In this document: piece by piece, positions 18,289 to 52,200 of the stretch
Layout: each line of letters begins with the position of its first letter
How positions within the stretch are numbered: the stretch's first letter is position 1
From: a virus
Virus record (IMG/VR): IMGVR_UViG_3300042880_000288
Coordinates: 1-64,000 of that record
Strand: one strand, 5' to 3'
DNA length: 64,000 nt
The notes under the pieces: model-generated
Seen by the model: only the letters and a program-made list of their open reading frames with translations
Database searches by the model: none
What the model was told of the DNA's origin: nothing
Program-made: the position numbers and the translations under genes

Positions 18289-18292
18289 ACCT

Positions 18293-22048: not shown

Positions 22049-22058
22049 TTATACCAAC

Positions 22059-24380: not shown

Positions 24381-24402
24381 ACATAATAAGTTTATTAAAC
24401 TT
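24378..24402 (+). promoter_or_regulatory. Second copy of the TAAACnTAnTAAGTTTA palindrome
   Basis: TAAACATAATAAGTTTA (24378-24394) is 15/17 identical to 18232-18248. It overlaps a second inverted repeat AAGTTTA-T-TAAACTT (24388-24402). Located upstream of ATG 24442. Confidence 0.5.
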
Positions 24403-24441
24403 TAAAAATTTTAATAGTTTTACAAAAGATAAAAAAATAAA

Positions 24442-27400: not shown

Positions 27401-27645
27401 ATCCTTTAGGTGGTCATGAGCTTAATTTTACAGTTCCACCTGTCTTAAGTTCAGGTAGTAATCAGTATCAATATCAATCTAAAATAAATGTGTATAATCC
27501 AGAAACAGGTAAGTTAGAAGAATATTCCGGATGGGAACCTACATTTACAAATGGTCAGGATATAGACGGCATTATAAAAGATTGGGAAGATATGTCAGCT
27601 CAAATCAACCTGCAAAATCAAAATATTAAATACGGATTAGAATAA
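24442..27645 (+). CDS. Internal virion/ejection protein, function unknown
   Basis: Helical N-terminus MATYLQGVTDYIPQFQPFQPDLNFY... of a kind seen upstream of crAss-like giant genes. No Cys seen in 1067 aa. Heads the ejection-protein block. Confidence 0.65.
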   Translation: MATYLQGVTDYIPQFQPFQPDLNFYASLMQTKQSQYDSNWKALNKVYGQYFYADLTRDNNVKKKEDLLKQIEFNLKRVSGLDLSLEQNVNQATQVFKPFYEDKNLMKDMAWTKTYNRETGRANALKGSAKEEDRKQYWDTGLKELNYRKDEFKEATDEEAMGMAGVSYTPYVNTMEKALKLAKDAGLSVESVKFTDDQRWIITQKNGQQLIEPLEKLFESSLGSDPGIQSVYKTQAYVNRKDYAFSNAGEFNGDKNAAEMKYLENSFNILKKQRDLQYKSIQKNSDVYDKRINDLQKLIDDKKAPVGSEDKLQDLKDNKKINDDVLARIQKESEMFSNSNSTSTTSSGWTNPYSDVATLRYKVDAGMASTLMEKDFGEAAQIYAYRDAKTSIKENPYKVLEIKHSQEMQQIHTSGAYKIQAQQMANQSREKVAAAKIQADAIKAEKERKADYDKWRVETGNGVYEEYEVTDAQGNKIIDPNTNQPLKDFRVVGNPNQKVTTKTIPNDNLTPIPDNKKANVYDVEKQNLANAQKKAQTDQALNTVFNTLNKLQNKIGPGDLAKLINPDYALAKDKDPMMSGLSAYMDNKGGILAGANQYMKDLMLVSKGTKDLMKVEDIQKGFQEKGADYLMSLSKKYGDTYISGLVERVDSYLAANAPYSPEFEMERQAMQGYVKPLKDYGKYEKVYFQWKDKADKAVAQQMTAQKEMIAAKEYSLKMTDSRGSIFQTKKEFLDANPTYTKLAQETFTGQSYGSSINSPGLGITGTGGRQSTFDEATNQAWNKYLQQVNKIQQKGGIPAGPAAASINGLVNNVFQNAANSVVANQKGGDGRRYYNEMMSTILNSGIAFDGKDGILTYGGFKQSAIKDAKEAETQQKLYTILNDFNTRFNDFTKPQPAIEIGGVLFAAGEKNRAGNFIRLPKEFLDGYYNQADPKKGFLSKDEYDGLLQNGLSIMADSDKIMNSLIEGTFTSPLEAVLKYNKELNFVDPLGGHELNFTVPPVLSSGSNQYQYQSKINVYNPETGKLEEYSGWEPTFTNGQDIDGIIKDWEDMSAQINLQNQNIKYGLE

Positions 27646-33600: not shown

Positions 33601-34995
33601 AAGGAAACTAAAGAGAAAGCACGTAAAATTACATTTAAAGAAGCTCAGTTTATTTTAAATACTGTTAGAAAAGTACAAGATGAAATAAGACAACTTGAAG
33701 AGATTAAAAAAGATTTGACTAATCAGATTAATTATTACAATAATCTAAAAACTGATCCATCAATGAGACTTATTAATAAGTCTGAGATTAATCAAAAGAT
33801 TGTTAAGGTTAAACGTAAGATATCTACAATTGAAAAATTAATAAATATCTTAAGAAATGCAATTAGAAAATCATTAGAATATCTTCAAGAGTATTTAAAA
33901 ATCTTTAATAAATATAATACTAAACTTGATAGATTCAGAAAAGATACCGGTTTCCAAGAATTATCAGCTGATGAAATTAGAGCATTGATTGATTCTTTAG
34001 ATCCAAATGATGTATCTACACTAGATAGATATCCTCAACTTAAAAAACAATTTGACACTCTTGTAGATAAAGTTAATAAATCCATGGATGATGTTGAGTT
34101 TACTGATGAAGTCATTCAAGTTGAAAGAGATAGATTAGAAGAATTAGTTGCTGCCCATAAAAAGTATAATGATCAATTAAGATACTTGCAAGAGTTATTA
34201 GAACCAGTTGCTGCTGATGCATTTTATGAAAGTCCTTTGTCTGATAAAAATGCACCTGATGCACCTAAACCAAAAACAGGTGGTACTCCTGCTCAACAAA
34301 GAATTCAAACTAGAATTGAAGAAACTAATAAAGAAATCCAAGATGCTAAAGATGATATGGGTGACACTGTAGGATCATTTAGTCTTAGTGATATAGAAGA
34401 AGCCCCTAGTGGACAACCTGCTGTTAAAACTGAAGGATTTAAAACTCTTTCAGATATGGTAGAAGCTGCTAATGATCTTATTGAATTAAATAAGATCTAT
34501 GATGTAATTACTGACTATACTTTAACAGTAGATGAGTTAGATCAACTATCAGATCTTATTGATCAGAGAACTGAAGCATTACAAACTAATACAGCAACTA
34601 TTACATATAATGAAAATAATATTTCAAAAGGTGATAGATTTATCGTAAAAAATGCTATATTTATTAATAAGGAAATTTTTGCAGAACCAGGAAATTCACT
34701 CTTTATAGAATCTGTTAATGAAAATGGAGTTACAGTATATAAAGTGTTGGGAGGTGAAACAGAAAATCTTACCTTTGAAGAATTAACTAATAATACAACT
34801 CTTGATAACATGTCAAACATCCCACAAGAAGAACCAGTAGTTCTATCTACAGAAGATAAAAATGTAATTAAATCTTCATTAGATGCAGCTAATTCAATTA
34901 CTACAGATGACTTAGATGCAGTTAAAGATTCAATTAAAAATAAATCAATGGATGATTTAGAGAATGATTTATTAGAAACTAATGTTTGTGAATAA
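27652..34995 (+). CDS. Giant ejection protein with PD-(D/E)XK nuclease domain and long coiled coil
   Basis: AGEIDLLIVD...SIVDIKSG...YLLQQTAYANM (D at 32635, DIK at 32677-32685, QQTAY at 32761). Gly/Ala-rich hydrophobic helices near the N-terminus and a heptad-rich region at about 33300-34250. Directly upstream of the vRNAP gene. Confidence 0.75.
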   Translation: MAEDTGIPFNPLDPLGPDVGKVDLPTIDPIGLSPFEGDNINVPTLENYKNVYDIPAVNILPPQSRLVNQAPNVRQLATGTVPGKTPSPVKSSASDRAMAWMAKWKGQNATRNAQPKDSFGRIYSYKDAPNGDAFMERYQAFGQEKFDELGFSPIRNNEALYNDNTTWWQRHSRMMTNSFWPLFFRGFVSGPKSLAKAMTGDFSADPEEADFYERAAAIGQDSTGGFGSFFNNTAMNFGYTAGIITEAIAEEGIALLLAPETGGASVVAATANNMRKLGTVGKTISMSRKLPNFASKGMNLNRASRAQAVARSSAAYGKVLNNSIKGIGGTINGSRGFWNAVRTNNIVKFLNPLDNTIDAIAGVGKNLDNLTGLAKSYQVVNKTAGGLYRDMRALNMALSEARLEGGLVQNSTYEKLYNDYYMKNGETPDDEMQRAMLQQAIDAGQETLLWNVALVYGTNKITFPNIMGPKGGIKNFLRSKTDDILNLDSKVGKMVIRKNKDVVKKGGLKNKYKGEFVEYSFKETLKSFAKDPIRKSAKGALVYLKGNIAEGLQENVQETLSMGLENYYVNKFESNALRAHLFNRAATEYSKDKSEYISEAWKKFNPFTSEGFEIFASGALMGLFASPINQSVEWASIAYNKNFNKEEYNKYIEAKSNYAKGVAATMNRMYSDPQAFFESKIFNYATQDQIFSAKKFGSRKIALDASDEAIVDTVTAFLETGNYDMLKHYIGEYNNMTAEEIEEDLGLEKGLGQKYKDRVNNVLDKANQIEETYNEINKRYPSPINLGDYKKGTDEYKRAAIFNSAWNLAKRNAVFLNSSYKDSLERMSSIVNAVSSDPSLSKTLSARDMEMLTNVSKMKSERDMLKAEIDAVKGSGTASRFDLTGAGKKQKKLDALDEFIKAYDYFQNYEVFDIEEQLDYLEAEGKLKDIKDNDGNALSEKDAREEAKKFLLAKLKVEPKSEEATLQAKTNLETAYKNFLRASANLNEGTYFEEGADKAFELLLDHYKLGRESNIMADYINLLHNPKEFAEHVERNYEWMSRLYENRQDHYDKLVNKQLAHIELNAILNALADRNVFISEEDAINFLRNPRMIPEEFFDNTRKAVIREGHPEYEELRTLFVIASATAIRGVADPTNEDLERNLDFLDEEMQKEIDALPQIEVKRGIKSLDTMGDPFVGIQAVFDQLGNDQYIEVSYLDAAGKEQKQIFYKKDDQLYYDNDKGNKVELDAITAQFLDGDIYTLKLEPKDQEAVKEIKERYAQRRIDYINKMSEKVANTAAEEAQNRFIPFTSATPYEDMDVELRELLAGAYNEYLDDNPELMEKVVDLDDYAYAEERDSFIRTNRIAKEIIDRYNKKKLAEQATTPTGEIEAPVIEINGQMIDFATLTDAQIRNKIRSLTKAADKLSEDIEALPEDKRNKADIERLAKMRFNINLAEKYLANRVKNNRSAKMETVKDIINREILRFQDGITKTSNNSKYVIDDDLYTRVTTAIESLKKDAYNYKNINIVLAEFNKTIGQGKSVDDFIAALKTRLPIGTDGMSKYVYKVLARNLKQVIEPEDPKAKKLSADELKNYLKEQISELTYEESRIGGNYLDAEIRKFLDEGEAQFDETKIDKAAFDAIFGPNSVLAKLKTRQDNGEIKIYANNIKLFDKDSKIAGEIDLLIVDREGAVSIVDIKSGNKDKWSGFHDAANPYSKKETYLLQQTAYANMFYNMTGIMPKVYLLPIEIESDPNVDLDEKTGLPIGGKILTAKYATSPVQLGENLIVLDPNTAYGDETIQEKVDTLIPRKEFVPAEPATTPLQEVSDEEFQDFVDNRNVSQSRLDDITYKISRGIELTERELAISQEFVADINFKLIQLAQQEQENQVGDDAESATGKAVLDEVSKALTESEKETRQRNIDILNRRISILESRALENDKSLGELQDTLGFLQNMLDSSVEIAGLEFEALMNSANSLYELANKLKSAKQVKRGEKIKARAGQYEKETKEKARKITFKEAQFILNTVRKVQDEIRQLEEIKKDLTNQINYYNNLKTDPSMRLINKSEINQKIVKVKRKISTIEKLINILRNAIRKSLEYLQEYLKIFNKYNTKLDRFRKDTGFQELSADEIRALIDSLDPNDVSTLDRYPQLKKQFDTLVDKVNKSMDDVEFTDEVIQVERDRLEELVAAHKKYNDQLRYLQELLEPVAADAFYESPLSDKNAPDAPKPKTGGTPAQQRIQTRIEETNKEIQDAKDDMGDTVGSFSLSDIEEAPSGQPAVKTEGFKTLSDMVEAANDLIELNKIYDVITDYTLTVDELDQLSDLIDQRTEALQTNTATITYNENNISKGDRFIVKNAIFINKEIFAEPGNSLFIESVNENGVTVYKVLGGETENLTFEELTNNTTLDNMSNIPQEEPVVLSTEDKNVIKSSLDAANSITTDDLDAVKDSIKNKSMDDLENDLLETNVCE

Positions 34996-37900
34996 TGAAA
35001 ATTACTTGTGCTCTTAGTAAAGAACATTTACTAAAACTTGCTGCTGTTATATATAAAGATATTGAATCATACCAAGCAGAGAATAAAGCCTATGATGCCA
35101 GAGTTTTAATGAATCAGTTATATGATAAATTAAATAAAGCACAAGGTCAAGAAGTTGCCTTATCTTATATGCAACAGATGCCATTTTTAGTTGGTCAAAT
35201 TGCTTTTAAAGAAAGCACTGAGCTCATTGAAGATTTTGCTATTAATGATCTATTTAAGTTAAATAAAGAATTCAGAAATGAAGATTCTGGAGTTCAATCT
35301 TTATTAAATTTTTTTGGTAAGACAATTGATGCATCTACTCTAAAACTACTTGCAGATGCAGAGTTAAATAATCCTGTTGAGAATGATGGGCCACCAATTG
35401 CTGAAGAACCTCCAATAGAAAAATTTACTGATAAGAGATTAAAAGTTTTAGTTGACAATGCTATATCAACTACCTGGGAAGAGTTTTTAGAAATGGATCC
35501 TAATTTAAAAGTTGATGAAACAATAGAGAATGTAGATCCTGCTAAAACTACTGTATATAATACACTAGATAGACTTAGAAAGTTAACTTCTGGTGGAACT
35601 GCCTTAGATACTATAGTAATGGATGATAACAAGGTTAAACTTAGAGTTTGGTCTCTTAATGCATTTCCTCAAGACTTACTATATCAAAAGACAAAAGATC
35701 TTAAACAAAGAATAAATACATTTCAATCTGGTAAAGCTAAAGATCAAGGTGAAGTAAAACCGGTTACTGAACAATTCATGGTTGTTCTTACAAATGAAAA
35801 AGGTCAGATACTTTATTTTAATGAAGCAGGTGTTGTTACTCCTAAAGAAAATGGAGGTAAACCTGTTTATCAAATGCTAAGAGATGTTAGATTAGAGAAA
35901 GGTGGTGAGTATAGAGTTACAGATATATATGGTAGAGAGGATATGATCCTTGGTTCTGCTCAAACTGCTCAAGCAAGAGTAAAACAAATGGGTTATAAAT
36001 CCATTGATATGTTTGAAAAATCTGAAGGTGTTAAGTTCTCAGATTTTGTAAATCAAATTGAAGAAGAAAGACAAGCAAAGTTTAAAGAGTATTATGATTT
36101 TAGACAGTCCTTAATTGGAATGCCAGCTAATAGACAAATATTTTTACCACTTGTTGATGTAAGTAATGGTGTTAGAAATGGTAGAGTTAGACCAGGAACT
36201 ATGAACATCAATAACTTAAGATCCTTTACTCCTGAACAAGCTGAAGCTATACTACAATCAATTACATTATTAGATACTGATTATATTACTGAAGATAGAA
36301 CACTTAAAGCTAATACATCAGCTGTTCAAATTAATGGAGAAGTATTTGAAGTTGACAGACCAGATATATCAACTGATCTGGCTACAAAAATAGCTAAGGT
36401 GCTTACTTCTAAAGATCTAAGTATTACAAGTAAGTTGGACTTTGTTCAACAGTTTTTAGATAACGCATTAGATGAAGATGTTAGAAGACATTTTATAAAG
36501 TATGATGCTGACCAAAAAAAATTAAGATTTTTATATAGAACATATATAAATGCTCAGTTTAAAGAAATTAAAAAAACAAATCCAAAAGCTGCAAATACAT
36601 GGTTGGAAGTTGATTTAACTGGAGGCCCTGCAGCTGAAGCAAAAATTATTGAAGTTCTTTTGAAAGGTAAAGGAACTTTAAAAAAAGAGAATAATAAAAT
36701 TGTATTGGATAAGAACGGTATTCCTGAAGTGGGAAGATATTATCCAGCTAAAATTAAATACGATAAAGGTTTACTGCAAGACGGTACTTATTTTGATTAT
36801 ATAGAAGATCCAAATAAACCTGGAGAATATATGTTCAGTGTAGGTTCCTATAAAACAGGATTACTTCCAACAATGGATGCTAAAATTGTATTAGGAAAAT
36901 CTAAATCAATTCCTTTGTTTAATAGCTACATGATTTTTGCAATTCCAAATGCATTTTCAGAATCTATTGATCAAATTAAAGATGAGAATGAAATAAAAGG
37001 AGAGCCTTCAGAAATACGTAAGAAGTATAATGAGTTAGTAGATATATTAAAAAATTCTCCTGATCAAAATCCAAGTTTAAAAGCAACAGTTACTGAATTA
37101 GGAAAGATAACACAGACACCTACAGGTAATTATAGAAGTATTGATATTACAATTGAAGGTCAAGAAGGAACTTTTAGATTGTATAGAGTTGTAGATACTA
37201 GTGCTAAAGTTGGAGATGAGATAAGTTTAATACTTAGAGATATTGAAGTACAAGATGGTATGGGATATCCTAATACTATTGTAGGTGTAAGAGATTTTGA
37301 AGGTAGAAGATATGACTTTGGATTCTTACAAGACTCATTCCGTAGTAAAGAATATAATGAACCATCAAGACAACCTGTACCATTAAATACTGAAGCAATA
37401 GAGGAAGCTAAAGAAGAAGAAGAACTTGATGATATAACAGATACACAATCTGAAGTAGGTGAGAGTAAAGATATTCCAATAACTCCTATTGAACCTGGTA
37501 AAGGTAGTATAGGTAGAATACTTGATGAGGATCCGGGGTTTGTTCTTGATAGAAAAACATGGCTGAGTCAATCAGGAATTACTCAAGAGCAATTAAATAA
37601 TGCAAAAGATTGGTGGGAGAATTCATCTTCTGGTAAGCTTTTAAATAAATACATTGAACTCAGTGTAGCAGCAGATTTAGTTAACTCTGATGTATATGCA
37701 AAATTTATTGCTAAAGGAGCATGGCTTTTAGGTTATGCTGATTACAAATTACAGCCAGGTAAACTTGGAGTTATTGCTTTAAATCCCCGTAATGGTGGGA
37801 ACTATGTAGATGTTTATCATGAAGCTTGGCACGTATTTTCTCAGTTATTCATGACTAATGAACAAAGAGTTAAATTATATACAGAGTTTAGAAATTCAGA

Positions 37901-40900
37901 TCCTGCATACAAGGATATGTCCTTCTTTGAAATAGAAGAAAGACTAGCAGAAAACTTTAGAGAGTATGCAAGAAATCCTAAACCTGTTAAAAGTCAACCT
38001 GTTAGAAATACATTATTTAGAAAAATATTAAACTTCCTAAAACAATTATTCGGTAAGGTATCTCCAAAAGATATCATTGATCCAAATATAATGGAAATAG
38101 GAATGGTTAATGAATTGTTTGAAGCTCTTTATTTCAATAATGATAATGTATTAAATAAATTTTCTCCATCCGTAGATAATTTAAAATGGGATGAACTTGA
38201 TAGAGGAGTGGTTGTAAAAACAGAAGAAAAGAATTCTAAGGGTAAAAATATAAAAGTTGAAGTACTGAATGAACAAGATGGTAGAGCTCTTGCAAATACC
38301 ATTGATTCTGTACTATCTGAAATCATTGATGAAAGTTCTAAATTTTATAATAAAAAATCAGGAACTGTAAAAATCTTAACTGATTCCTATAATAAAGGTC
38401 TTGCTTATGATAAGGTTAGAAAGAAGTTCATAGAAGATATTAAACAATGGCAAAAAGAACTTCTTATTAAAGATGCTAAGTTTGATACCTATACCACTTT
38501 AGATCAATTAGATTCAAATGCCTTTGCTGTAATAAGAAGTAAAAAAGGTGATCATAAATATATTTTCTTAAGAGGTCAAGTTGAAAGTTTTAAAAATCTA
38601 ACAGCTGATACTAAACTTGGAGAAAGAGAGAAAGGAAAACTATACAAAGACAATATTGAAATTGTAGCAGATTACTTTGAACATGATTTAATTAAAGATA
38701 GAAAAGGAAGAGGAGCAAGTATAATAATTGTTGATAGTAGACAAGAAGCTGAAGATCAATTTAAAAATTATATTGAAATTGATCCTATTACTAACGAACA
38801 AAAGGCACCTTCAATACAATCAATTAAATTTAATGAAGATAGAGTTGCTGCAAGATTATTTACTCCAGAGCAACAACTTAAATTAGATAACATTAGAATC
38901 TATGAAACAGCACTTAAACACTGGGATTCTATTATTGCTCATCATGAAAATAACTCAACCTTTGATATAATTAAACAAAAATATATCTTACTTGAAGAAG
39001 ACCCAAGTACAAACTCATCATTAGATACTACAAGAGCTAATGAAACTAGGACTGGGGATAAACAAATTGGAGAGTTTACATTACAGGAAATGGCTAATAA
39101 AGAGACTGTATATATATTAAAAAGTCTCTTTAAGAAAGAAAAGAAAGGAACTGGTTATGTTAATGTATATGATAGATTTGGTAATAAACAATTAGCTGAT
39201 TTTAGAACAGTATGGAATGCCGTTGTAAGAGCCACCAATAGTGCAAAAGATCCTCAAAAAATATATGATGCACTTGTAAATGCTGCCAAGTTTTCTCCAG
39301 AACTACAACAGTTAATAGATTATAAGTTGCCTTTACCAAATCAAGTAAATCAATCTTCTTCTGAGTTTGATATTACTACTTCATTCTTTACTGATTTTAG
39401 TAGACCAAAAGTACCATATATTCAATTGTTAGCTTTTGATGATGGTGTAGAATTCTCAACTGAAGTAACAGATGCTGGTATAGATGTAAGTAAAACTTTA
39501 AAGATATTTGAGGCTAAGTTCCGGTCAGATAAAAATGATTCATACATTGAAAAAGATAATAATATATCCAGACTTAATTTAAATGCTGTATTGCAAAATT
39601 TTAGAAATAAAAATAGTGCAAATTTAATTCTTGATGAAGATAAAGCATTTAAGTTTCTTACATCCATTGGATTCTATTTTGATGATCTTACTGCTATTAA
39701 AGATGAATTAAAAGATTTCAATAATAGAAAGTATTATTATATACCAAGAATATTTGAAACAATCAAATTAGTACATGAAGCTAGTTTAGATCCTAACTTA
39801 TCTAAAGAAGGAAGAGAATTAATAAATAAGTTTAGAATGAGTCCATTGAGGGTATTAAGAAGTGGTATACCTGAAAATGTATTGGGTCAGAAAGATTCTT
39901 CTTTATACAAAAATGGGCTTTCACAAAAGACTATTGTTGATAGACTGCTTACATTACAAAGTAAATACGGTAAAACCGGATCTAATTTTAGTGTATTAAA
40001 TCCTGAAAGAAACAGAGTTAATTTACATACTGATGATAACACAGCAACAGTAATAGCTGATGCAATAAATCAAGTAAGTAATAAATCTGATATGTGGACA
40101 AAAACACAGTATAGATTATTAAATTCATTTAACCCTGCAGTTAATGCATTTACTAACAGGTCCCAAATAATGAAAGCTTTATTTGAGCCAAGTAATAAAA
40201 GAAGAACTGACAGATTTTTAGAAATTATTATGGTGGCTGGTACACAGCTTACATTAAATGATGTATTTTTATCAGGAACATCAACTACAAGTTTAGATGG
40301 CCAGGGTAAATTCTTACAAGATTTTCATACATTTCTTAAGTCAGGTTATTTAGAGTTTTTAAGACCAGGTTCTAAATCCTCTTCATTTGGATTCATCTTA
40401 CGTGGAGGTTTCCCTATTGATGTAAAAGGTATGGGTAAGAATAAAGAACAACATCTATATGCAGATATAGATGACTTCCTTACTGCAAACAATAAAGAGA
40501 CTGAAGTAATTGAAAGAATTATCCTACCATATCTTGCAGGTGAACTTGAAAGAATAAATAAATTCAAAGAAAACCCAAAAGCAAAAAATTATATAGGGTA
40601 TAATCAAAAAGTCACTGACTCAGGTAAGAGAGCTGGAGAAGAGTATGCAATATTTGAAGGTATACTTGATGATAAAACTAAATCAGACTTATTAGAAAAA
40701 ATAAACAACTCTGGTATAGATTTAATAAACTATCTTAAAAATGATCCTGATTTAAAATCTAGTTTGATTAAACAAATCAAAGGTTATTTTACTACTAGAA
40801 GTACTGATGTTTATAACAGATTAAATGAAGGTAAATATGTAGATCCTAAACTATATAATAAAGTACCTGGTGATTTGACTAAGTCAGAAAAAGAAAAAGT

Positions 40901-43900: not shown

Positions 43901-46900
43901 AGCTGTACAATTAAGTGATAATAATTTAGATAGCTTTGGTAATTTTGATAAAGCTAAAATTGAACAATTAGTTAAGTCTAAAAATGATACTGATAAATAT
44001 TCTGATTTTTCAATGGCTGCATTCTTGCATTTTATTGAGATTGAAAAATATTTAAAGGGTCTAGGTAATGTAAAAAGATTATCTAAACCAGATACTCAAA
44101 CATTTAAAACTATACAAGAGGTTTTATTAAGAGATCTAAATATTGCATACTTAAATGATTACAGTAAAGTTGATAAAACTACTTTTGATAGATTAAGAAA
44201 TGACAGCATTCTTGCTGCTCTTGCAGATAAAGATATAATAACTCAAGTAATAAGTCCATTGTTTTCATTAAGAAATAGCAAGCAAGTATTAGATCAGATT
44301 GTTTCTACTATCAATACTAAAACAGAAGCTCTCAAAGAAAGATATGGTGGTCTTGGAGCAGACAACATTAGTAGGTTTATTGAAGAGTATAAAAATGCCA
44401 TCAATACATTTATACTACAAAACTTCTTAAGTAACAATATAAACTCTAATGGAGAGATTGTTTTAGTGCCGGATACTTACAAAGGTTTTGAAGTTGTTAC
44501 TAATGAAAATCTTGAAACAGATGTTGAAGTAACTGAGAAGGATGGTAAGAAACTTATTAGAGTTAATCCAAAAAGAATTGAAGCTGACTTTAAAAATAAA
44601 AACTACTTAGTAACCAGTAGCTCTAACAACTCTTACAAGTCAAGAGGCCTTGAAGCATTCCAAGTTGGTGATGATGTATTTGAATCTAAGTCAAGTTACT
44701 ATAGATATGTTATAGAAAGAGAGTATTTAAAAAATAAAGGATTTACTAAAGAAGAACTTAACAGTATTGCTTTATTGAATACTTATAATCCATCTGTAAT
44801 ATTGAGAAGAGGTACATATTCTTTTACAGATCAGTTATTAGAATCTATTCAACAGTTTCCAGAACTTTCTAAATATCCTGTAGTAAACCAATTAAGTTTA
44901 TATGCTTTTTCTAATGAATTTAATGTATTAACTTTAAATGATAAAGGTTTACTTGATGGTGCTCAAGCTGATATATATGCTCAGAATATTAGAGAACTAG
45001 CTAATCCAAAAATCCAAAAGATTGCAAACACTAAGGATAATGAAAAAATAAGTAGATTATTTTACATGCTTCAATTAATGGCAACTTACCAACATGGTTC
45101 AGGTCCTTCAATTGATGGCTTTAATGAAATACTACCTCAAGATTCATACTTAAGTGTTATGAATAATGCTAGTCCTTTATTCACTAAATACTATTTTAAT
45201 GAAGATACTCTTGAATATATTGTTGATGTTCTTACAGCAGATAAATTAAGAATTAAGAACTATACAAGCATGCCAACAAGTAATAATACATTTGTTATTG
45301 AGGCTAAAGCTGAAGGTGCTCAACCATCTATTAAACCAACAACTCCTACTTTAACTGTAAATGATCCTAAAGATTTTACAAATCATTCGGGTGGTGCTGC
45401 TTTATCTGATACTGAATGGGATCAAATAGGTAGAGAGTTTGGGGTAACTAATCATAAACATTATAGAGAGCCTTTAGATTATGTAGATACAAAAGGTGAA
45501 GCTGCTAAAGGAAGTAAAACATTAGATTCTAAAAAATTACAAGCAGCTGGTATTGAACCTACTCATATTAGTCAAAAAGACTATAATGAAGGTGCACAAA
45601 AAGCTACAAAAGCTTTTAGAATGATGTATACTGATTCTGAAAATAAATCAGTAAGAAGTGCCTATATTATTCGTAACTGGTTACAAGTTAAAAATGCTGA
45701 TGCCATATTTGCATTAGGTACTATAAAACAACCTGGTGAAAATGCATCTGATAAAGCTGGTGAAACAAGAATAGCTGCTGTCCCTATTGTTAAAGGTGGT
45801 ACAGGATATGCTGTTCAAATGGCTATTAATGAAGGTAAACCTGTTTATGTATTTGATGGTACTAAAGAAGGATGGTATAAGTATGATTATTCAATTAAAA
45901 ATTTTGTAAAAACTGATACACCAACTCTTACTAAAAACTTTGCAGGTATAGGAAGTAGAACACTAAGTACAAAAGAAGTAATAGACAAATCATTACAAGC
46001 CATCAGAGATGTATATACTCAAACATTTGGGGCTAAACAAAAATCAGATGGTACAACAGTTAAATACAAGTACTATGGTGCTATGTATGATATTGTTGTA
46101 GAGAATGGACTTGGTATAGATGTATTAAACTATAAAGGGAAACCGGCTAAAAAAGCAATTTTATTAGCTTACTTTAATCAAAATCCAAATATAGATCCTC
46201 AAAGTACTGGACCTGATCCAATAGTTTTAAGTGATGAAGAAATAAATAATGATGATACAGGTAACTCAGATCCAACAACAGGTAATACATTTACTTTTGC
46301 TGATGGTTATGAGATTGAAACTCCTTTTAAATTAAACAAAGAACAAGAGGCAGCTCTGTTAAAACTTGAAGAATTCTATAATGATCCTAAAAAATTCAAT
46401 AATGAAATTACATTGATTGGATATGCAGGAACTGGTAAAACTTCAATCATGGCTCTCTTTGATAAATGGTTGAATAAAGGATGGTTTGGACCTAATATAG
46501 TATATACTGCACCAACTCATAGAGCAAATGCTGTTACTAAACTTAAGAATCCTAAAATTAAAGTATTAACTCTCCATTCCTTATTTGGATTTGGTCCTGA
46601 AGTAGACTTTGAAGGAATGGATTATGACGTAAGAGATTTACAATTTGCTAATAATAGAAATGGAAAAATTGATAAAGGTCAAATACTTATTGTAGATGAA
46701 TCTTCTATGATTACTGATGAATTATATGATTTCTTAGGTCAGCAAAAAGATAAGTATGATCTTAAAGTTATATACATGGGTGATCCAGGACAGTTAGGTC
46801 CTGTGCAAAATAAAGGAGGCTTGACATCAAAAGTATTTTCTAATCCCACATCTAGTATTACTTTAACTAAAGTAGAAAGAACAGGAGATAATCCTATACT

Positions 46901-49214
46901 AAAAGAATCAACTGCACTAAGATCTGGAGGTTCTTTATCATATCAGTCTGCAGAAATTAATGGAAAAGGTGTTGAATATATAAATAGTACAGCTAGAGAA
47001 AATCAAATACTTGCTGAAAATCTTAATGAAATGAGAGACTCAGAAAACTATTTGTATTTTAGAATGTTAGCTGCAACAAATCCTGAAGTAGCTAGATTAA
47101 ATAAAGTAGCGAGAGAAATATTATATCCTCAAACCTATCAAGAACAATTAGTAGTTGGTGAAATTCTTATGGGGTATGATAATTTTGGTAGAGATTATAA
47201 AACAGGCCAGTCTTTATTATATAACTCTGGAGATTATATGATTACTCAACTTAAGAAAGATAATAAAGAAGTCTATATAACTAATTATGAAAAACAAGGA
47301 GACAAATTTGTAAATATCGGTTTTGAAGAATTGAATTTTACTGGATACAATGTAACTCTTAAAAATCTATTGGATCCAGAAGCAAAACCATTTGAAGTCT
47401 TTATACCAGATATTGTAGGTAATGATGATGCATCTACTAAACTTGCAGATTCTATTCATAAGTTAAACTATATGGGTAAGATTGCTGGTTATGGACAAGA
47501 TAAAGCTAAATATTTTGAAGCAGCTTCTAATTTATCTAAACAAGTATTATTTATGAATGACGTAAAAGGTTTAACTGATAAGTCTAAAATTAAAAAAGCA
47601 ATAGACTATGGTTATGCTCATACAATTCATAAATCTCAAGGTGGTACTTATACTAAAGTATTTATAAATGATCCTAGTATAACAGGATTAGTAGGATATA
47701 TTAAAGATAGAAGAAGACTTACCGATGATCAAGCACAAACTGTTGAAAGACAATTAAAGTATGTTGCTGTATCAAGAGCTACTGACTATGTATATATTTC
47801 AACTAATAGAAGTGCTGCAGGAAAACCTACTAGTTTTGATGATCCGGCCTCTGGAGATTTTGATACTGTAGGAACATTTAATATCAATGATTTAAATCCA
47901 CCATCTAATCCACCAATATCAGGAGAAAGAAAACCTATTGAACCAATAAATGCTCAAGAAATTGAAGATGGTTTAATCTTACAAAAAGGTGTTCTTACTA
48001 AAGAAGAACAAAAACAATTCTTTCAATTTGGTAAAACAGTTCTAGAAAAGAATGGTTATAATCCTTTTGCACAATATGTTATGGCCTCTGCTGGTAAAAT
48101 GGAATGGAGTCCTGAATTTGTAGTTGATAAAAATGGAAAAGGTGTAGATAGACCAGGAAATTATAATACTGGAATCATTCAAATTAAGAAAAACCTAGGA
48201 GGAAGAGACAGTAAAGAAAAAAGATGGAATTATAATTACTACCTCACTAATTTTGATGGTACTACTATAGCTCCAATACCAAATAATATTATAAGTATAC
48301 TAGAAAAAGTTACAGGTCAAGATATGTCTGACTATGATACAGTTCTAATTAACTTATATCCATTAGGTAGAACACTTGGTTGGCATCAAGATATAACTGA
48401 AGATTATAGAAACATGGATAGAGATATTATATCTGTATCTATTGGAGCAGATGCTGATTTTACTTACAATAAAAGAGATAAATTAAGTTATGCTCCTGCA
48501 GCAGATAGTATTCCTGATGGTGTTGTTAATTTAAAGAGTGGGGATGTTATGAGTTTTGGTGGTAAATCTAGACTTGTTCAACATACTGTAACTAATGTAA
48601 CAGGTCAGACAGATTTAGGAACCATAAATCTTGCTAACTCTAATGTAAATAAATATTTTAATGGTGGTTTAAATTTATCTAACTGGAGAATGAACTTTAC
48701 ATTTAGAGTAGCTGATTCTAAAAATAATAATGGTAAAAGAGGATTAGTTTCTACAGTAATTCCAGGTATTAAAAAGTTTGAAGGACAAATGACCTATGCT
48801 TATGGTCAAAATAAAAGAGCTGGTGTAATAGCTAATACAACATTTGATGCCATATTAACGGGTGAAAGAACAGCTACTACAAGATATGAAACTTCAGATA
48901 ATATTGAATACTGGAAAAAAGCCAAAGTTGGAGATATTATTACATGGAAATCTGATGATGGCCGTACTGTAGATGTAGAAGTAACAAGACCACTACATAA
49001 ATTAGTGGGGTCAGGTAAAACACCAACTGATTGGAGCCAACTTGAAGGCTGGTCAATATCTTATTTTAATGAAAAGGTTAGACCTAAACTTGATAAAGCT
49101 TGGCAAATTGAGTTTAAATTACCTGCACCGCCTGCTGCTGAAACAGAAATTAATGATAACTTTATTGATCCTTTTGAAGATGATCAAGAAAATAATTGTG
49201 CATATCCTTTTTAA
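34995..49214 (+). CDS. Virion-packaged DNA-dependent RNA polymerase polyprotein (crAss-like, phi14:2 gp66 type) with zincin, SLOG, SF1B helicase, AlkB and ASCH domains
   Basis: RIPVQG (42552) and GGDYDVDKL (DYDVD 42669-42683) match the DFDID-type double-psi-beta-barrel catalytic motif; also DGQG at 41343. Further motifs: HEAWH 37818, GYAGTGKT 46419, IVDESSM about 46690, HKSQG about 47630, YVAVSRA about 47760, HQD 48384/H 48582/RMNFTFR 48687, GERTATTR about 48860. Confidence 0.85.
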   Translation: MKITCALSKEHLLKLAAVIYKDIESYQAENKAYDARVLMNQLYDKLNKAQGQEVALSYMQQMPFLVGQIAFKESTELIEDFAINDLFKLNKEFRNEDSGVQSLLNFFGKTIDASTLKLLADAELNNPVENDGPPIAEEPPIEKFTDKRLKVLVDNAISTTWEEFLEMDPNLKVDETIENVDPAKTTVYNTLDRLRKLTSGGTALDTIVMDDNKVKLRVWSLNAFPQDLLYQKTKDLKQRINTFQSGKAKDQGEVKPVTEQFMVVLTNEKGQILYFNEAGVVTPKENGGKPVYQMLRDVRLEKGGEYRVTDIYGREDMILGSAQTAQARVKQMGYKSIDMFEKSEGVKFSDFVNQIEEERQAKFKEYYDFRQSLIGMPANRQIFLPLVDVSNGVRNGRVRPGTMNINNLRSFTPEQAEAILQSITLLDTDYITEDRTLKANTSAVQINGEVFEVDRPDISTDLATKIAKVLTSKDLSITSKLDFVQQFLDNALDEDVRRHFIKYDADQKKLRFLYRTYINAQFKEIKKTNPKAANTWLEVDLTGGPAAEAKIIEVLLKGKGTLKKENNKIVLDKNGIPEVGRYYPAKIKYDKGLLQDGTYFDYIEDPNKPGEYMFSVGSYKTGLLPTMDAKIVLGKSKSIPLFNSYMIFAIPNAFSESIDQIKDENEIKGEPSEIRKKYNELVDILKNSPDQNPSLKATVTELGKITQTPTGNYRSIDITIEGQEGTFRLYRVVDTSAKVGDEISLILRDIEVQDGMGYPNTIVGVRDFEGRRYDFGFLQDSFRSKEYNEPSRQPVPLNTEAIEEAKEEEELDDITDTQSEVGESKDIPITPIEPGKGSIGRILDEDPGFVLDRKTWLSQSGITQEQLNNAKDWWENSSSGKLLNKYIELSVAADLVNSDVYAKFIAKGAWLLGYADYKLQPGKLGVIALNPRNGGNYVDVYHEAWHVFSQLFMTNEQRVKLYTEFRNSDPAYKDMSFFEIEERLAENFREYARNPKPVKSQPVRNTLFRKILNFLKQLFGKVSPKDIIDPNIMEIGMVNELFEALYFNNDNVLNKFSPSVDNLKWDELDRGVVVKTEEKNSKGKNIKVEVLNEQDGRALANTIDSVLSEIIDESSKFYNKKSGTVKILTDSYNKGLAYDKVRKKFIEDIKQWQKELLIKDAKFDTYTTLDQLDSNAFAVIRSKKGDHKYIFLRGQVESFKNLTADTKLGEREKGKLYKDNIEIVADYFEHDLIKDRKGRGASIIIVDSRQEAEDQFKNYIEIDPITNEQKAPSIQSIKFNEDRVAARLFTPEQQLKLDNIRIYETALKHWDSIIAHHENNSTFDIIKQKYILLEEDPSTNSSLDTTRANETRTGDKQIGEFTLQEMANKETVYILKSLFKKEKKGTGYVNVYDRFGNKQLADFRTVWNAVVRATNSAKDPQKIYDALVNAAKFSPELQQLIDYKLPLPNQVNQSSSEFDITTSFFTDFSRPKVPYIQLLAFDDGVEFSTEVTDAGIDVSKTLKIFEAKFRSDKNDSYIEKDNNISRLNLNAVLQNFRNKNSANLILDEDKAFKFLTSIGFYFDDLTAIKDELKDFNNRKYYYIPRIFETIKLVHEASLDPNLSKEGRELINKFRMSPLRVLRSGIPENVLGQKDSSLYKNGLSQKTIVDRLLTLQSKYGKTGSNFSVLNPERNRVNLHTDDNTATVIADAINQVSNKSDMWTKTQYRLLNSFNPAVNAFTNRSQIMKALFEPSNKRRTDRFLEIIMVAGTQLTLNDVFLSGTSTTSLDGQGKFLQDFHTFLKSGYLEFLRPGSKSSSFGFILRGGFPIDVKGMGKNKEQHLYADIDDFLTANNKETEVIERIILPYLAGELERINKFKENPKAKNYIGYNQKVTDSGKRAGEEYAIFEGILDDKTKSDLLEKINNSGIDLINYLKNDPDLKSSLIKQIKGYFTTRSTDVYNRLNEGKYVDPKLYNKVPGDLTKSEKEKVLAKTFMYNYWIHSVETQILFLGDISQYNHLKEELHKRTSGLISNGPRFRTDTAAQLFINNKALWAKSTYASTLPAEYQNFEYNGTFNTAIMEDITRDSEYLDIIKKGLEKDYAKRYALLPTAEAKKLIEERVAKEIAKYTADEIKEGDGQGYITVDAYRTLKKLQNRWSDQQEVLYQKVIKGSEITPAEYIELFPPYKLQYFGPLVAQTKDFANGTVLPVTAFHKFALVPLIPSWVKGSDLEVLHKEMLRNNIQYATFGSGSKVGAVTSDGELDKIYEPGSDNKKLKSKINFTKNTINVEYLKEVTSVPSKLKGKVIFSTQLRKLILEGLFIKGELVNGANKDIVEGYTSLVDSYTKLLKEELLTEIGYTKENGVYVGKPAKLLKLIKDNLAKKDYPSHLLDALKTNPDGSLKYDLSNFIDAQTIERTVLSIAENRFVKQKLKGEALVQVASSMTNGLWTAGNKFKAGSKEDVLKYMGTNNLPFYYPGEDGKTNAMKVAIALQGDFFNLLNLNDLDGQPIKTRERLNELIKQDEWLNKDNNRKAITMTAVRIPVQGLNSMEFMEVWEFLDPSASNIIIPPTELVAKSGGDYDVDKLTTFMPNIDKDGNVYTSDKNAKALLDSINEADSKDKMALIKQAKKVMENDLITSIRSILELPENYATLVRPNDTYMLKDIADELADVVVDYDKFQTVNRKFKEYRIVKGKKAISPTTTLEPLYNIDKFNGNMIGKAVLGIGANENAFSPLLNSIGAKMPLTYQESEFDPKINKYKDIKDGETYRTRLLLRHNKNADGTISLADVNSVDAVNKIADLFSQGMNGWVDVEKDQWIFYIQGNLEISPVLLYLLKAGVPVRDAVMFVSTPLIREYANKQRLLKSPYATLMGIAPTEPQFAQYNAANEVLSPAIDAYLKRTIDKAVFSGYSFDTASIAYYGLGPNGRKQLMTQEFKGTDDQVIKDQINDFLQYVDSNDVMRINFYQQADRRQNNKVYSKPRVSNKEIYNSAVQLSDNNLDSFGNFDKAKIEQLVKSKNDTDKYSDFSMAAFLHFIEIEKYLKGLGNVKRLSKPDTQTFKTIQEVLLRDLNIAYLNDYSKVDKTTFDRLRNDSILAALADKDIITQVISPLFSLRNSKQVLDQIVSTINTKTEALKERYGGLGADNISRFIEEYKNAINTFILQNFLSNNINSNGEIVLVPDTYKGFEVVTNENLETDVEVTEKDGKKLIRVNPKRIEADFKNKNYLVTSSSNNSYKSRGLEAFQVGDDVFESKSSYYRYVIEREYLKNKGFTKEELNSIALLNTYNPSVILRRGTYSFTDQLLESIQQFPELSKYPVVNQLSLYAFSNEFNVLTLNDKGLLDGAQADIYAQNIRELANPKIQKIANTKDNEKISRLFYMLQLMATYQHGSGPSIDGFNEILPQDSYLSVMNNASPLFTKYYFNEDTLEYIVDVLTADKLRIKNYTSMPTSNNTFVIEAKAEGAQPSIKPTTPTLTVNDPKDFTNHSGGAALSDTEWDQIGREFGVTNHKHYREPLDYVDTKGEAAKGSKTLDSKKLQAAGIEPTHISQKDYNEGAQKATKAFRMMYTDSENKSVRSAYIIRNWLQVKNADAIFALGTIKQPGENASDKAGETRIAAVPIVKGGTGYAVQMAINEGKPVYVFDGTKEGWYKYDYSIKNFVKTDTPTLTKNFAGIGSRTLSTKEVIDKSLQAIRDVYTQTFGAKQKSDGTTVKYKYYGAMYDIVVENGLGIDVLNYKGKPAKKAILLAYFNQNPNIDPQSTGPDPIVLSDEEINNDDTGNSDPTTGNTFTFADGYEIETPFKLNKEQEAALLKLEEFYNDPKKFNNEITLIGYAGTGKTSIMALFDKWLNKGWFGPNIVYTAPTHRANAVTKLKNPKIKVLTLHSLFGFGPEVDFEGMDYDVRDLQFANNRNGKIDKGQILIVDESSMITDELYDFLGQQKDKYDLKVIYMGDPGQLGPVQNKGGLTSKVFSNPTSSITLTKVERTGDNPILKESTALRSGGSLSYQSAEINGKGVEYINSTARENQILAENLNEMRDSENYLYFRMLAATNPEVARLNKVAREILYPQTYQEQLVVGEILMGYDNFGRDYKTGQSLLYNSGDYMITQLKKDNKEVYITNYEKQGDKFVNIGFEELNFTGYNVTLKNLLDPEAKPFEVFIPDIVGNDDASTKLADSIHKLNYMGKIAGYGQDKAKYFEAASNLSKQVLFMNDVKGLTDKSKIKKAIDYGYAHTIHKSQGGTYTKVFINDPSITGLVGYIKDRRRLTDDQAQTVERQLKYVAVSRATDYVYISTNRSAAGKPTSFDDPASGDFDTVGTFNINDLNPPSNPPISGERKPIEPINAQEIEDGLILQKGVLTKEEQKQFFQFGKTVLEKNGYNPFAQYVMASAGKMEWSPEFVVDKNGKGVDRPGNYNTGIIQIKKNLGGRDSKEKRWNYNYYLTNFDGTTIAPIPNNIISILEKVTGQDMSDYDTVLINLYPLGRTLGWHQDITEDYRNMDRDIISVSIGADADFTYNKRDKLSYAPAADSIPDGVVNLKSGDVMSFGGKSRLVQHTVTNVTGQTDLGTINLANSNVNKYFNGGLNLSNWRMNFTFRVADSKNNNGKRGLVSTVIPGIKKFEGQMTYAYGQNKRAGVIANTTFDAILTGERTATTRYETSDNIEYWKKAKVGDIITWKSDDGRTVDVEVTRPLHKLVGSGKTPTDWSQLEGWSISYFNEKVRPKLDKAWQIEFKLPAPPAAETEINDNFIDPFEDDQENNCAYPF
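37600..38060 (+). other. Zincin-like metallopeptidase domain within vRNAP polyprotein
   Basis: VYHEAWHVFSQLF followed by EERLAENFREY and LFRKILNFLKQLF, an HExxH...E pattern. Boundaries approximate. Confidence 0.7.
45375..46032 (+). other. SLOG (DprA/Smf/YpsA-like) domain within vRNAP polyprotein
   Basis: HSGGA..SD, RNWLQVKNADAIFALG, KGGTGYAVQMAINEGKPVYVFD and NFAGIGSR give the Gly-rich GGA/GGT Rossmannoid loops of the SLOG superfamily. Boundaries approximate. Confidence 0.6.
46326..47810 (+). other. RecD/Dda-like superfamily 1B helicase domain within vRNAP polyprotein
   Basis: Q motif LNKEQEAAL, Walker A GYAGTGKT, Ia APTHRA, II IVDESSM, III GDPGQLGPV, IV LTKVER, V YAHTIHKSQG, VI YVAVSRA, all in the canonical order. 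Confidence 0.9.
47964..48710 (+). other. AlkB-family 2OG-Fe(II) dioxygenase domain within vRNAP polyprotein
   Basis: LINLY....LGWHQD, IISVSIGADADF, LKSGDVMSFGGKSRLVQHTV and RMNFTFR supply HxD...H iron ligands and the RxxxxxR 2OG-binding motif. Confidence 0.85.
48774..49120 (+). other. ASCH (PUA-like) domain at the C-terminus of vRNAP polyprotein
   Basis: FDAILTGERTATTR...KVGDIITW...VDVEV...LEGW...WQIEF follows the ASCH pattern (GxKxxxxR, here GxR). Confidence 0.65.
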
Positions 49215-49223
49215 TTAAATAAA

Positions 49224-52200
49224 ATGGCAAAAAATTGTAGAGATACTGAAAAATTTAAAACAGCTGAGGCATCTACTAAAGCTTGGTTTAAAACAAATGG
49301 TTTATTAGATAGATTTTTAAGAATCCCTGAAGGTAAATTAGTAAAGTTTAGAGAGGCTAATGCAGCTTTATCTAAAAAAGCTAATAATGAAATGAATATT
49401 CCAGGTAGACTCTTTACAGAACTTGAAGGAGGTACAAGAGCTTTACCAAACATAATGATGTTCCATAAGATAGATGCTTTTAAAGGTAAATTCTATCCGG
49501 GAAATAACTATTTAAAACCAGAATATTTACCAAGAGAAACTAGACCACTCTATGAAACTGTTGCCATTGATGAAGAAGCAGTTAGTGCTGAAAGAGCAGA
49601 CAAGTTATTTAATGCATTAGGTCAAAAATATGAGGCAGCCTTTGGTATACCATATGTTATGGTATCAGAATATGAGGCTAATATGATATTACAAAATAGC
49701 AATACTCCTTATAACAATCAACCAGGTTTCTTTTATGGAGACAAGGTTTATTTTGTTAAAGGTAAAGCTACTATGAACACAATGGTTCATGAATTCTCAC
49801 ATCCCCTTATAAAAGCTATTGCATTAAATAACCCTAAACTATTTAACAATCTATATGAAACTTTACTAAAAAGTGATACAGGTCAAGATATAGTGAATCA
49901 ATTAGTAGCTGAAGGTAAATTACAACCTGAGACTTCAAGATTTAAAGAAGAAGCCTTGGTTAGAGCAATGGAAAAAGATGCTGCTGAGAAGTTATCTAAT
50001 GTAGTTAAAAGTGACAGTGCCTTTAAGGAGTTCATAAACATGCTAATGTATGCTATTAAAAAGATACTTGCTGGCATGACTAAGATGGTTAGTCCTAAAA
50101 AATTAACTACTACAACTACACTTTCTGAACTAACTGATATGATGTTATTTGAAGACTTTCAAATGGAATCTATTAAGTTTGATAATACTGATTTTGCAGA
50201 CTTTGCATCTGAGTATGATGCTTTACTTGGTGCTTTACAAAACTCCACTGCTAAACAATTACAAGAAGCTATCAACAGAGCCTATACAGAAAGTACTTTC
50301 CAGTTAACCCAGTTAAGAAATGCTCCTTGGAAACTAAAAGAAGATTTAAGTAGAATTGGTGGAGAAAAAGTATTGAGATCTATCAGAGATCATTTGAAAA
50401 GATATCAAACTGTTTCTGCAGACTTATCTGATATTTCAGTAGATGAAATTTTAGATGCCATGGAATCTCAGCAAGAAGAGTTTAGAATAAGAGGTATTGC
50501 ACTTATTAATTCTATAAATGAAGCTAAGATATTCTCAGAAAAAATAGAACAGATATTGCAAGAAATGCAGACTAATAAGAGACATCTTACTGCTGCTGGT
50601 ATAGCCAAAGTACAATATTTTAGTGAGTATATTCAGAGGCAGAAAGAGTTTCTTACTGATGTAGAAAAAATATTAGGCCGGGGTAGGGACAATGAGTTTG
50701 TAAAAGAACTTAGATCAACTATCAATATTATCAATGATGCTTCTGACTTAATCAAAGAACTGAAGACAGATGTAGTCACAGAAATATTTGTGGATAATAC
50801 TGAGTTCATGCAAGAAGAAATGGATAGAAAGATTTCTGAAAGAATTAGGCAGATAGCTAAGGCAGATAATCTATCAGAAGCCCTGACAGAAGAACTTGTA
50901 AAAGAAATTACCAGTCTACCTAATGTAAAAAAATATGACATTGACTTAAAGAAATATCCTCTTAATCCTAAGAGAGCTCAAGTATTGGCTAATGAATTAA
51001 AAGAATACTTCTTTAAAAGATTAAATAGAGATGCTATTGAAAAATATTTAAGTGGTGAAACTGAAGACCTAACATTCTTTCAGGCTTGGTTAAACCCATA
51101 TCTATCTATGGATGATCCTTTAGGATCTTTTGTAAGATATATGAAGACTAAATTATCTGAGGCTGAGAACAAAAGTTTATCTCAAGCAAATGACATTGCT
51201 AATACTCTAGTTCCTTTATTAGATGCTGTAGGTTATAGTCCAAATAATACAGGCCAACTAGGTAAGATGTTATTACAAACAGATAAGACTGGTTACACTG
51301 ATTCTAATGGTGAGTTTGTTGAGTTTGAATTATATACTTTCTTAGATCAATTTATTAATTGGAGAAGAGATAAAGCTGAATTACAACACAACTTTGATAA
51401 AGCAAGAGAGAGTGGTGATAAAGAAAAGATTAAATCTGCACTACAAGCACTATGGGAGTTTGAAGAAAAGTACATGCACCGTAAGTATAAACAAGAGTAC
51501 TATGACCTTCAAAATATTTGGAAACAAGATAACACAGTTAGAAACCCAATCACAGGATTAGATGTTAGTGTTTCTGCTTCACTATCTACAGAAGCATTCT
51601 TAGAAAGACAATCAGGTTTGGATAAACTCAATCAATACAAACACGAGGCTTATACTGAAATGGATGACCTTTATGAGTTTACTGAATCAGATGCTGCAAA
51701 GGCAGAGTATGAGCAATTATATCAGATAACTAATGCAGATGGTACAAATAAAACCGGTGATGAACTTCTAAAAACTCTTGTAAGAAGAAAGTATAGATAT
51801 GAATCTAAAAGATTTTATGAGTATAGTTTGAATGAAGAAAGAGTTCAAAGAGACTACGACAATTATGTTCAGGAGTTAGCAGTTAGAGGTATAACCAAAG
51901 ATGCTAAACCTGAAGAGTGGAAAGCAGAAATGAAGAAGTTTATTGATAAAAACTTCCGTATTGCATATTCTGAAGATTATTATAGATCTAAGGAAGATCT
52001 TTTTACACGACTTACAGATATAACTAATAAGTATAAATCCCCCCTGGCAGATAAAATGAGAGATCTTTATCTAGAAAGATGGAGACTTACAAATGCTATT
52101 ACAGATAAGAATGGTACAACTAATGCCTTACAATATACTAATGCTGTATTAGAAAAAATTAAAGATCTAGAAGAAGAGATTGTTAAGCTTCAAGATCAGT

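Follow-up and report, generated by a model that had tools for sequence, protein, structure and literature searches.

We analyzed the first 64 kb (the window) of a 120.7-kb virus contig, IMG/VR record IMGVR_UViG_3300042880_000288 (31% G+C, complete according to CheckV). Structural-gene matches and a family-A DNA polymerase mark the virus as a crAss-like phage. The study concerns three successive plus-strand genes, here named A, B, and C, whose giant products contain only four cysteines (Cys), each close to an end that faces the neighboring protein. Gene A (27652-34995) encodes a predicted cargo protein of 2447 amino acids (aa) and 276 kDa with a PD-(D/E)XK nuclease domain; its sole Cys is residue 2446. 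Gene B (34995-49214) encodes a predicted virion RNA polymerase (RNAP) polyprotein of 4739 aa and 536 kDa, in which Cys occurs only at residues 5 and 4735. Gene C (49224-55028) encodes a predicted cargo protein of 1934 aa and 223 kDa with a LysM domain at residue 1620 and a sole Cys at residue 5. In the chain proposed below, A would be the first member, B the middle member, and C the last.

The RNA polymerase cargo block

The domains recognized in B were a zincin module (YHEAWH at residue 942), the RNAP metal motif DYDVD (residues 2559-2563), a Dda/RecD-like helicase (residues 3749-4274), and an AlkB-like oxygenase (residues 4399-4571). DYDVD, the catalytic DxDxD motif of two-barrel RNAPs, was invariant across the B family alignment. 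The window holds two zincin modules with different HExxH motifs: that of B, at residues 941-947 (37815-37835), and HEFSH in C, at residues 189-193 (49788-49802).

Profiles built from database homologs were used to relate the three proteins to those of cultured phages. The family-A profile matched crAss001 gp47 (E 1e-30), the family-B profile matched the solved phi14:2 RNAP (E 3.9e-23) and crAss001 gp50 (E 2.4e-15), and the family-C profile matched crAss001 gp49 (E 4e-23) and phi14:2 gp76 (E 1.4e-15). Judged by these matches, A, B, and C are the RNAP cargo block, orthologous to crAss001 gp47, gp50, and gp49, respectively. B is twice as long as its cultured orthologs and has the helicase and AlkB-like additions, and the zincin module is differently placed with respect to the break between A and B. 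Three "RNA polymerase-associated" cargo proteins were found by mass spectrometry in the virions of crAss001 (PMC10172136) and phi14:2 (bioRxiv 10.1101/2020.03.07.982082). From this orthology and from their place in the structural gene block, we infer that A, B, and C are likewise packaged and ejected. Among INPHARED phages, there was no nucleotide match to the A|B junction region. A related-locus search using the N-terminal 500 aa of B as a single-protein query also gave no match, and family alignments were used instead.

Cysteine content of A, B, and C

A script count found four Cys in the 9120 residues of the three proteins: A-2446, B-5, B-4735, and C-5. This agrees with an earlier note on this DNA, in which the residues had been counted by eye. 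The codons are all TGT, at 34987-34989 (A), 35007-35009 (B head), 49197-49199 (B tail), and 49236-49238 (C). As the same note had stated, the outer ends of the series, the N-terminus of A and the C-terminus of C, are Cys-free.

The frequency of Cys elsewhere in the 120.7-kb genome is 1.53%, from which approximately 140 would be expected in 9120 aa; the binomial probability of four or fewer is ~1e-54. A Cys content this far below that of the phage's own proteome is characteristic of ejection proteins of the N4 gp50 type. Given four Cys, the probability that all of them sit in the four facing terminal windows is ~1e-11. Among the 110 other genes of the genome, Cys occurred within the first six residues of 8 products and within the last nine residues of 6, matching composition. 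Terminal Cys are thus no general habit of this genome. The depletion is wider than the earlier note stated: it spans the whole block at 9626-55028, which encodes 16 Cys in 15,079 aa, and 10 of these 16 form one cluster in a 773-aa protein.

Conservation among homologs

Each of the three proteins was searched against a collection of 5.8 billion proteins, and the counts that follow refer to cluster representatives. In the A family, 89 of 90 representatives had a Cys within the last six residues, with four internal Cys in 208,496 aa. The B family comprised 120 representatives, of which 108 had both a Cys at positions 4-6 and a Cys in the last nine residues; the C-terminal Cys taken by itself was present in 119, and there were two internal Cys in 479,100 aa. 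For C, 109 of 116 representatives (24-95% identity) had a Cys at positions 3-6, and 19 internal Cys occurred in 230,351 aa. The seven that lacked it were short or odd at the N-terminus, which suggests truncated gene calls. Across the three families, the frequency of internal Cys was 0.0004-0.008%. The outer ends were Cys-free in the homologs as well: none of the 90 A homologs had an N-terminal Cys, and none of the 116 C homologs had a C-terminal one.

On IMG/VR contigs carrying both partners, both Cys were present at 75/75 A|B junctions and 62/62 B|C junctions. Two apparent exceptions were explained, one (L121) by an ORF (open reading frame) start called too far out and the other (L112) by a frameshift. 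The earlier note's expectation that terminal-only Cys would be conserved in homologous trios is therefore very clearly borne out. In L112 (~16640-16840), the head of the B homolog, MVNCSLSQ, is intact and the frame is broken after ~50 codons, by a sequencing error or a real frameshift. As a result of this break, the database protein P0219 seemingly has no N-terminal Cys.

The family alignments gave the same picture at the level of single columns: the terminal Cys were invariant or nearly so, against a mean column identity of 19-27%. Cys2446 of A is among the 10 columns that do not vary in an alignment of 38 sequences and, when the last 250 residues of A were aligned, the sole invariant column. 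Cys5 of B was invariant in two alignments.

The pattern extends to the cultured phages, whose virion-packaged orthologs are crAss001 gp47/gp50/gp49 (PMC10172136) and phi14:2 gp67/gp66/gp65 (bioRxiv; gp78/gp77/gp76 in the KC821624 numbering used here). In crAss001, gp47 (+ strand) has its sole Cys at -3, where negative positions count back from the last residue; gp50 has Cys at 5, 1334, and -9, and gp49 has a sole Cys at 5 (both - strand). In phi14:2, the sole Cys of gp78 is the last residue, gp77, the crystallized RNAP, has Cys at 3 and -2 only, and gp76 has a sole Cys at 3. DAC15 fits the scheme as these two phages do. Because gp47 of crAss001 lies on the strand opposite gp50 and gp49, the pattern is not a nucleotide signal at gene junctions.

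A chance pattern, an annotation artifact, or a nucleotide-level junction signal has a practically negligible probability. All four codons in the window are TGT and lie near starts and stops, as such an origin might lead one to expect, but the placement alone is improbable in the window, and the pattern is kept in more than 300 clusters, at identities as low as ~24%. That the TGT codons arose from a nucleotide signal or from translational coupling was ruled out by genomes in which partner genes lie on opposite strands or have an inserted gene between them, and by the lack of any such bias in the genome's other genes.

Predicted structure of tails and heads

Models of the A tail and the B head were built with AF2 from 41-sequence alignments. 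The A tail (34948-34992, + strand) has an acidic terminal helix at residues ~2433-2442 (DDLENDLLET), followed by a short coil with Cys2446; in the model of the last 250 aa, the helix spans model residues 236-245 and the Cys is at 249 in a five-residue coil. The B head (34995-35018, + strand), MKITCALS, places Cys5 on an eight-residue arm ahead of the first helix, modeled as coil at 1-8 and helix at 9-28. Both Cys of the A|B junction are thus predicted on short coils beside terminal helices. The corresponding family motifs are D-L-E-x-D-L-[FL]-x4-C for the A tail and M-[KA]-I-T-C-[AT]-L for the B head. The B tail (49185-49211, + strand) ends in QENNCAYPF, with Cys4735 five residues from the end. 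Searched against the PDB with Foldseek, the A-tail and B-head models had no significant match to A4, a cyanopodophage discussed below, or to any ejectosome protein; the only match was a weak SH3-like one in A. It falls in a small β-barrel modeled at residues ~2329-2384 (34636-34803), with weak matches to SH3 and FeoA-like domains (E 2e-3 to 1e-2).

Cysteines follow gene breaks

Gene fusions and splits provide the strongest evidence that the terminal Cys may pair. In every architecture, the first member of the series has a C-terminal Cys only, the last has an N-terminal Cys only, and middle members have both.

Two kinds of natural fusion bear on this rule. In Intestiviridae (p-crAssphage gp44 and crAss002 gp33), B and C form one gene; A keeps its C-terminal Cys, and the C-terminus of the fused protein is Cys-free. 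At the other end of the fused protein, p-crAssphage has a Cys at position 3, and the first Cys of the annotated ORF of crAss002 is at 35. The fusion status is taken from the depositors' annotation, "RNAP catalytic subunit fused to unknown RNAP subunit," and the fusion point itself was not located in either protein by phmmer or BLAST. The second kind involves the other junction. Three Suoliviridae (cr118_1, cr109_1, and cr1_1) and Flavobacterium phage Fpv1 have no separate A and a giant RNAP protein without an N-terminal Cys; the pair formed by the B tail and the C head is kept. Specifically, gp33 of Fpv1 has one Cys in 4401 residues, at -2.

New splits were found in the IMG/VR relatives. In one of these (L055), a GIY-YIG/NUMOD3 homing endonuclease (8292-8900) lies inside the gene for the C homolog. 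The upstream piece, X (396 aa), has Cys at 3 and -2 only, and the downstream piece, C', starts with MAC (Cys 3). Four relatives in which the gene is unsplit (L078, L074, L069, and L071) have an N-terminal Cys only. In two further relatives (L090 and L091), B and C are separated by an additional protein of 583 aa, Y, whose only Cys are at 4 and -3. In L083 and L057, the Y module forms an inner part of C, where the corresponding site is Cys-free; in L051, a weak match to the module lies toward the C-terminus of B. Finally, L084 and L090 share the same 26-residue tail (77% identical) before the same C head, on different carrier proteins, which hints at cognate recognition between tail and head.

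The distribution of Cys among first, middle, and last members is as predicted by a linear tail-to-head chain and not as predicted by homodimers, outside partners, or intramolecular roles. Co-variation with fusions and splits therefore supports pairing of the C-terminal Cys of A with the N-terminal Cys of B, and of the C-terminal Cys of B with the N-terminal Cys of C.

Bonding other than neighbor to neighbor, whether in homodimers (A-A or C-C), in a circular B, or with the portal, the capsid, or other cargo, is quite unlikely. Contacts are not readable from sequence alone, each cargo protein is present in several copies in crAss001 (PMC10172136), and some smaller cargo proteins with a lone C-terminal Cys have no obvious N-terminal partner (p-crAssphage gp47 and crAss002 gp30). 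However, the N-terminal Cys of B is missing in exactly those genomes without a separate A, both of the ends created by a new split always acquire a Cys, and a first member never has an N-terminal Cys nor a last member a C-terminal one. Homodimers or outside partners would predict none of this.

An alternative that we judge very unlikely is that the Cys act within their own proteins, either as a "cysteine switch" capping the zinc of a nearby zincin until ejection or as redox sensors. An HExxH motif does occur ~180-245 residues from the terminal Cys in C of the window (189 vs 5), phi14:2 gp76, crAss001 gp47, p-crAssphage gp45, crAss002 gp32, and Fpv1 gp33. But A of the window has no HExxH, though its C-terminal Cys is invariant, and in B 937 residues separate the zincin from Cys5. 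No zincin was matched in X or Y, each of which nevertheless carries Cys at both ends, and the rule for first, middle, and last members would be left unexplained.

The zincin module also served as a landmark. YHEAxH is located ~180 residues before the C-terminus of the A ortholog in crAss001 (gp47), at residue 942 of B in the window, and at residue 1734 of the giant protein of cr118_1. Since the module is placed differently between lineages, the A|B break falls at non-homologous places. Modules have been re-partitioned among the three genes between lineages. Zincin modules were also observed in A of p-crAssphage and crAss002 and near the C-terminus of the giant protein of Fpv1.

Some further observations were made on these relatives. 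The new N-terminus that follows the homing endonuclease in L055 carries a kinase-like AAA_33 module. In the gut crassvirus cr109_1 (L176 11787-28931), the giant genes contain many in-frame table-11 stops (70 in gp53), consistent with stop-codon recoding; the terminal-Cys pair is present. Three smaller upstream cargo proteins of Intestiviridae, p-crAssphage gp47 (L012 5588-8161) and gp48 (L012 4673-5467) and crAss002 gp30 (L014 6393-8066), end a few residues after a Cys that is their only or last one (QSCR; RCGG in two of them), and an N-terminal partner was not obvious. These Cys may form further links of another kind.

Chemistry of the proposed link

A resolved example of the same signature comes from the cyanopodophage A4. 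Its cryo-electron microscopy (cryo-EM) structure contains a disulfide between gp27 Cys1715 and gp26 Cys5, with the C-terminal helix of gp27 docked in gp26 (PNAS 2025, PMC12002296). In the genome of Anabaena phage A-4L, the only Cys of gp27 (1717 aa) is residue 1715 and the only Cys of gp26 (1114 aa) is residue 5. As in the window, the ejection proteins are encoded by adjacent genes, and a sole Cys lies at the extreme C-terminus upstream and at the extreme N-terminus downstream (-3/5 in A-4L; -2/5 and -5/5 in the window). A4 is the sole experimental proof that this signature can be a real tail-to-head bond. Because the signature corresponds to a resolved disulfide there, disulfides are the most likely chemistry for the terminal Cys pairs of crassvirus cargo, by analogy. 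The systems also differ: A4, a T7-like phage without a virion RNAP, has one link between two structural ejectosome proteins, and the paper reports neither a chain of two to four giant enzymes nor a rule that follows gene breaks.

The earlier note had proposed disulfide or shared-metal links from C- to N-terminus through A, B, and C. The pairing in that proposal is supported by the co-variation described above, and the preference for a disulfide comes from the A4 analogy. The ordered threading through the tail and the release in the reducing cytoplasm that the note also envisaged may follow from such links, but natural fused forms show that release is not essential. The note had known of no description of the mechanism; one such link has been published, for A4, though it neither concerns a crassvirus nor was presented as a chain.

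A shared metal ion (e.g. Zn, Fe, or Cu) could join the same pairs, bound by two thiolates and nearby acidic residues or by the combined pairs of two copies. We regard this as unlikely, though as a rival to be taken seriously. Unlike disulfides, which are disfavored under such conditions, a metal clasp would be workable in the cytoplasm and in anoxic habitats; no oxidase was found in the genome, although the Erv control was uninformative; and the A tail is strongly acidic. Opposed to these points, each terminus has a single conserved Cys, with no CxxC and no conserved His nearby, and the sole resolved example of the signature, A4, is a disulfide.

It is highly improbable that the Cys instead drive a true ligation or processing event, such as thioester formation, joining akin to native chemical ligation, or a cleavage signal, in place of a reversible bridge. 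Many tails have Cys as the very last residue and heads have Cys a few residues in, and published work assumes that the fused polyproteins are cleaved. But no intein, Hint, or protease module lies beside the Cys, ligation would require an N-terminal Cys, which that of the heads is not, and the Cys, variably placed (3-6; -1 to -9), are not flanked by a catalytic motif.

Several considerations weigh against a disulfide-linked chain. The pairing is deduced from co-variation rather than contact, and the bond in crassviruses from analogy. BLAST, profile, and Foldseek comparisons revealed no similarity of A4 gp27 or gp26 to A, B, or C; the two systems therefore resemble each other in mechanism and not through common ancestry. 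An A-like region was not found in Fpv1 gp33 or cr118_1 gp14 by the family-A profile or Pfam, and these searches do not distinguish fusion from loss of A in Suoliviridae and Fpv1. Many crassviruses assemble in a reducing cytoplasm and live in the anoxic gut. Thioredoxin and glutaredoxin profiles had no match in the phage's own genome; an Erv1/Alr profile had none either, but its control matched nowhere, so this result is uninformative. With no oxidase, thioredoxin, or glutaredoxin found in the genome, oxidation would need to be spontaneous. Natural fused forms show that the partners need not come apart after entry. The phi14:2 RNAP, produced recombinantly, is active by itself in dithiothreitol, and the Cys are therefore not needed for catalysis. 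Finally, the cargo is unresolved in the crAss001 cryo-EM maps, and the paper never uses the word "cysteine" (PMC10172136).

Relation to known systems

Cys suppression is known from other injected proteins. The ejection proteins of Schitoviridae (N4 gp50 and DEV gp71-gp73), including the giant virion RNAP, are nearly Cys-free, which has been explained as avoiding unwanted disulfides during entry (PMC11445570). They resemble A, B, and C in being injected and Cys-suppressed. In contrast, the N4-type polymerase is a single polypeptide with zero Cys, and conserved terminal pairs have not been reported; the few Cys in gp72 homologs were ascribed to annotation errors (PMC11445570).

Inter-subunit disulfides occur elsewhere in crAss001 virions, in the tail and gp57 (PMC10172136). 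Neither the crAss001 paper (PMC10172136) nor the phi14:2 paper (bioRxiv 10.1101/2020.03.07.982082) mentions Cys in the cargo proteins considered here. Full-text literature searches found no description of the terminal-Cys pattern for crassviruses, and the structure papers on crAss001, phi14:2, and N4 are silent on it. What is new is thus the multi-link chain of giant enzymes that we propose and the gene-break rule across Crassvirales; Cys suppression, in N4-like phages, and one tail-to-head disulfide, in A4, were known already.

A parallel in principle is offered by AB-type bacterial toxins, in which, outside the cell, a single disulfide keeps the translocated enzyme chain joined to its partner; this bond is reducible in the cytosol. 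The toxin chains differ in being cleaved from one precursor and are unrelated proteins, so the analogy is one of principle only.

Proposed mechanism

On balance, A, B, and C are probably joined by tail-to-head links, most likely disulfides, with the four Cys acting as clasps between proteins. The three proteins have been purged of Cys, like other phage-injected proteins, and the four that remain would be the clasps. Each tail would first dock non-covalently on the head of the next protein, and the docked pair would oxidize to a disulfide after the particle leaves the reducing cytoplasm. The Cys that follows the acidic terminal helix of A would pair with Cys5 on the N-terminal arm of B, and the Cys near the C-terminus of B with Cys5 of C. 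The product would be one unbranched A-B-C thread of 9120 residues and ~1.04 MDa, in effect a polyprotein with disulfides in place of peptide bonds at the gene breaks. As every Cys is at most nine residues from an end, the linked chain would be nearly linear and could, in a partly unfolded state, fit through a narrow tail channel. Each protein would pull in the next, and the partners would reach the host together. We infer a role of the links in ejection or co-delivery on this basis.

A wider generalization can be offered tentatively and is, in our estimation, possible rather than probable. Crassviruses, and convergently some podophages such as A4, might inject cargo as one covalent thread of ~1 MDa in a fixed order, cut into working enzymes by the reducing cytoplasm of the host. 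The terminal Cys pair would then be a reversible stand-in for a peptide bond, letting giant genes split, take up homing endonucleases, re-fuse, and re-partition freely.

In the human gut, no phages are more abundant than crassviruses. The published structures do not answer the question of how these phages package ~5 MDa of protein, with a multi-part RNAP among it, and inject it. The near-universal sequence rule turns this question into a model testable at the bench, in which the RNAP proteins travel as one thread linked end to end. The rule would explain the free drift of gene boundaries in the cargo block between lineages. It also aids annotation: genuine starts and ends can be recognized by terminal Cys, and a missing one points to a fusion or a truncated call. 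Taken together with A4, the rule suggests that podophage ejection proteins have arrived at tail-to-head disulfides repeatedly.

Neighboring genes and other cysteine-bearing proteins

Upstream of A, and outside the proposed chain, the + strand encodes five Cys-poor presumed cargo or ejection proteins at 9626-27645 (1498, 1370, 1251, 773, and 1067 aa), none of which has a terminal Cys. The 1251-aa protein (18293-22048) has exactly two Cys, residues 1086 and 1098, 12 residues apart, which might pair within the molecule or form a metal site. In the 773-aa protein (22059-24380), ten Cys at residues 389-495 form a Cys-rich island with spacing like that of a metal-binding module; there was no PHROG match. 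Beyond the window, at 116263-119274 of the same genome, a 1003-aa protein, probably a fiber or receptor-binding protein, contains 71 Cys (7%), in contrast to the cargo block.

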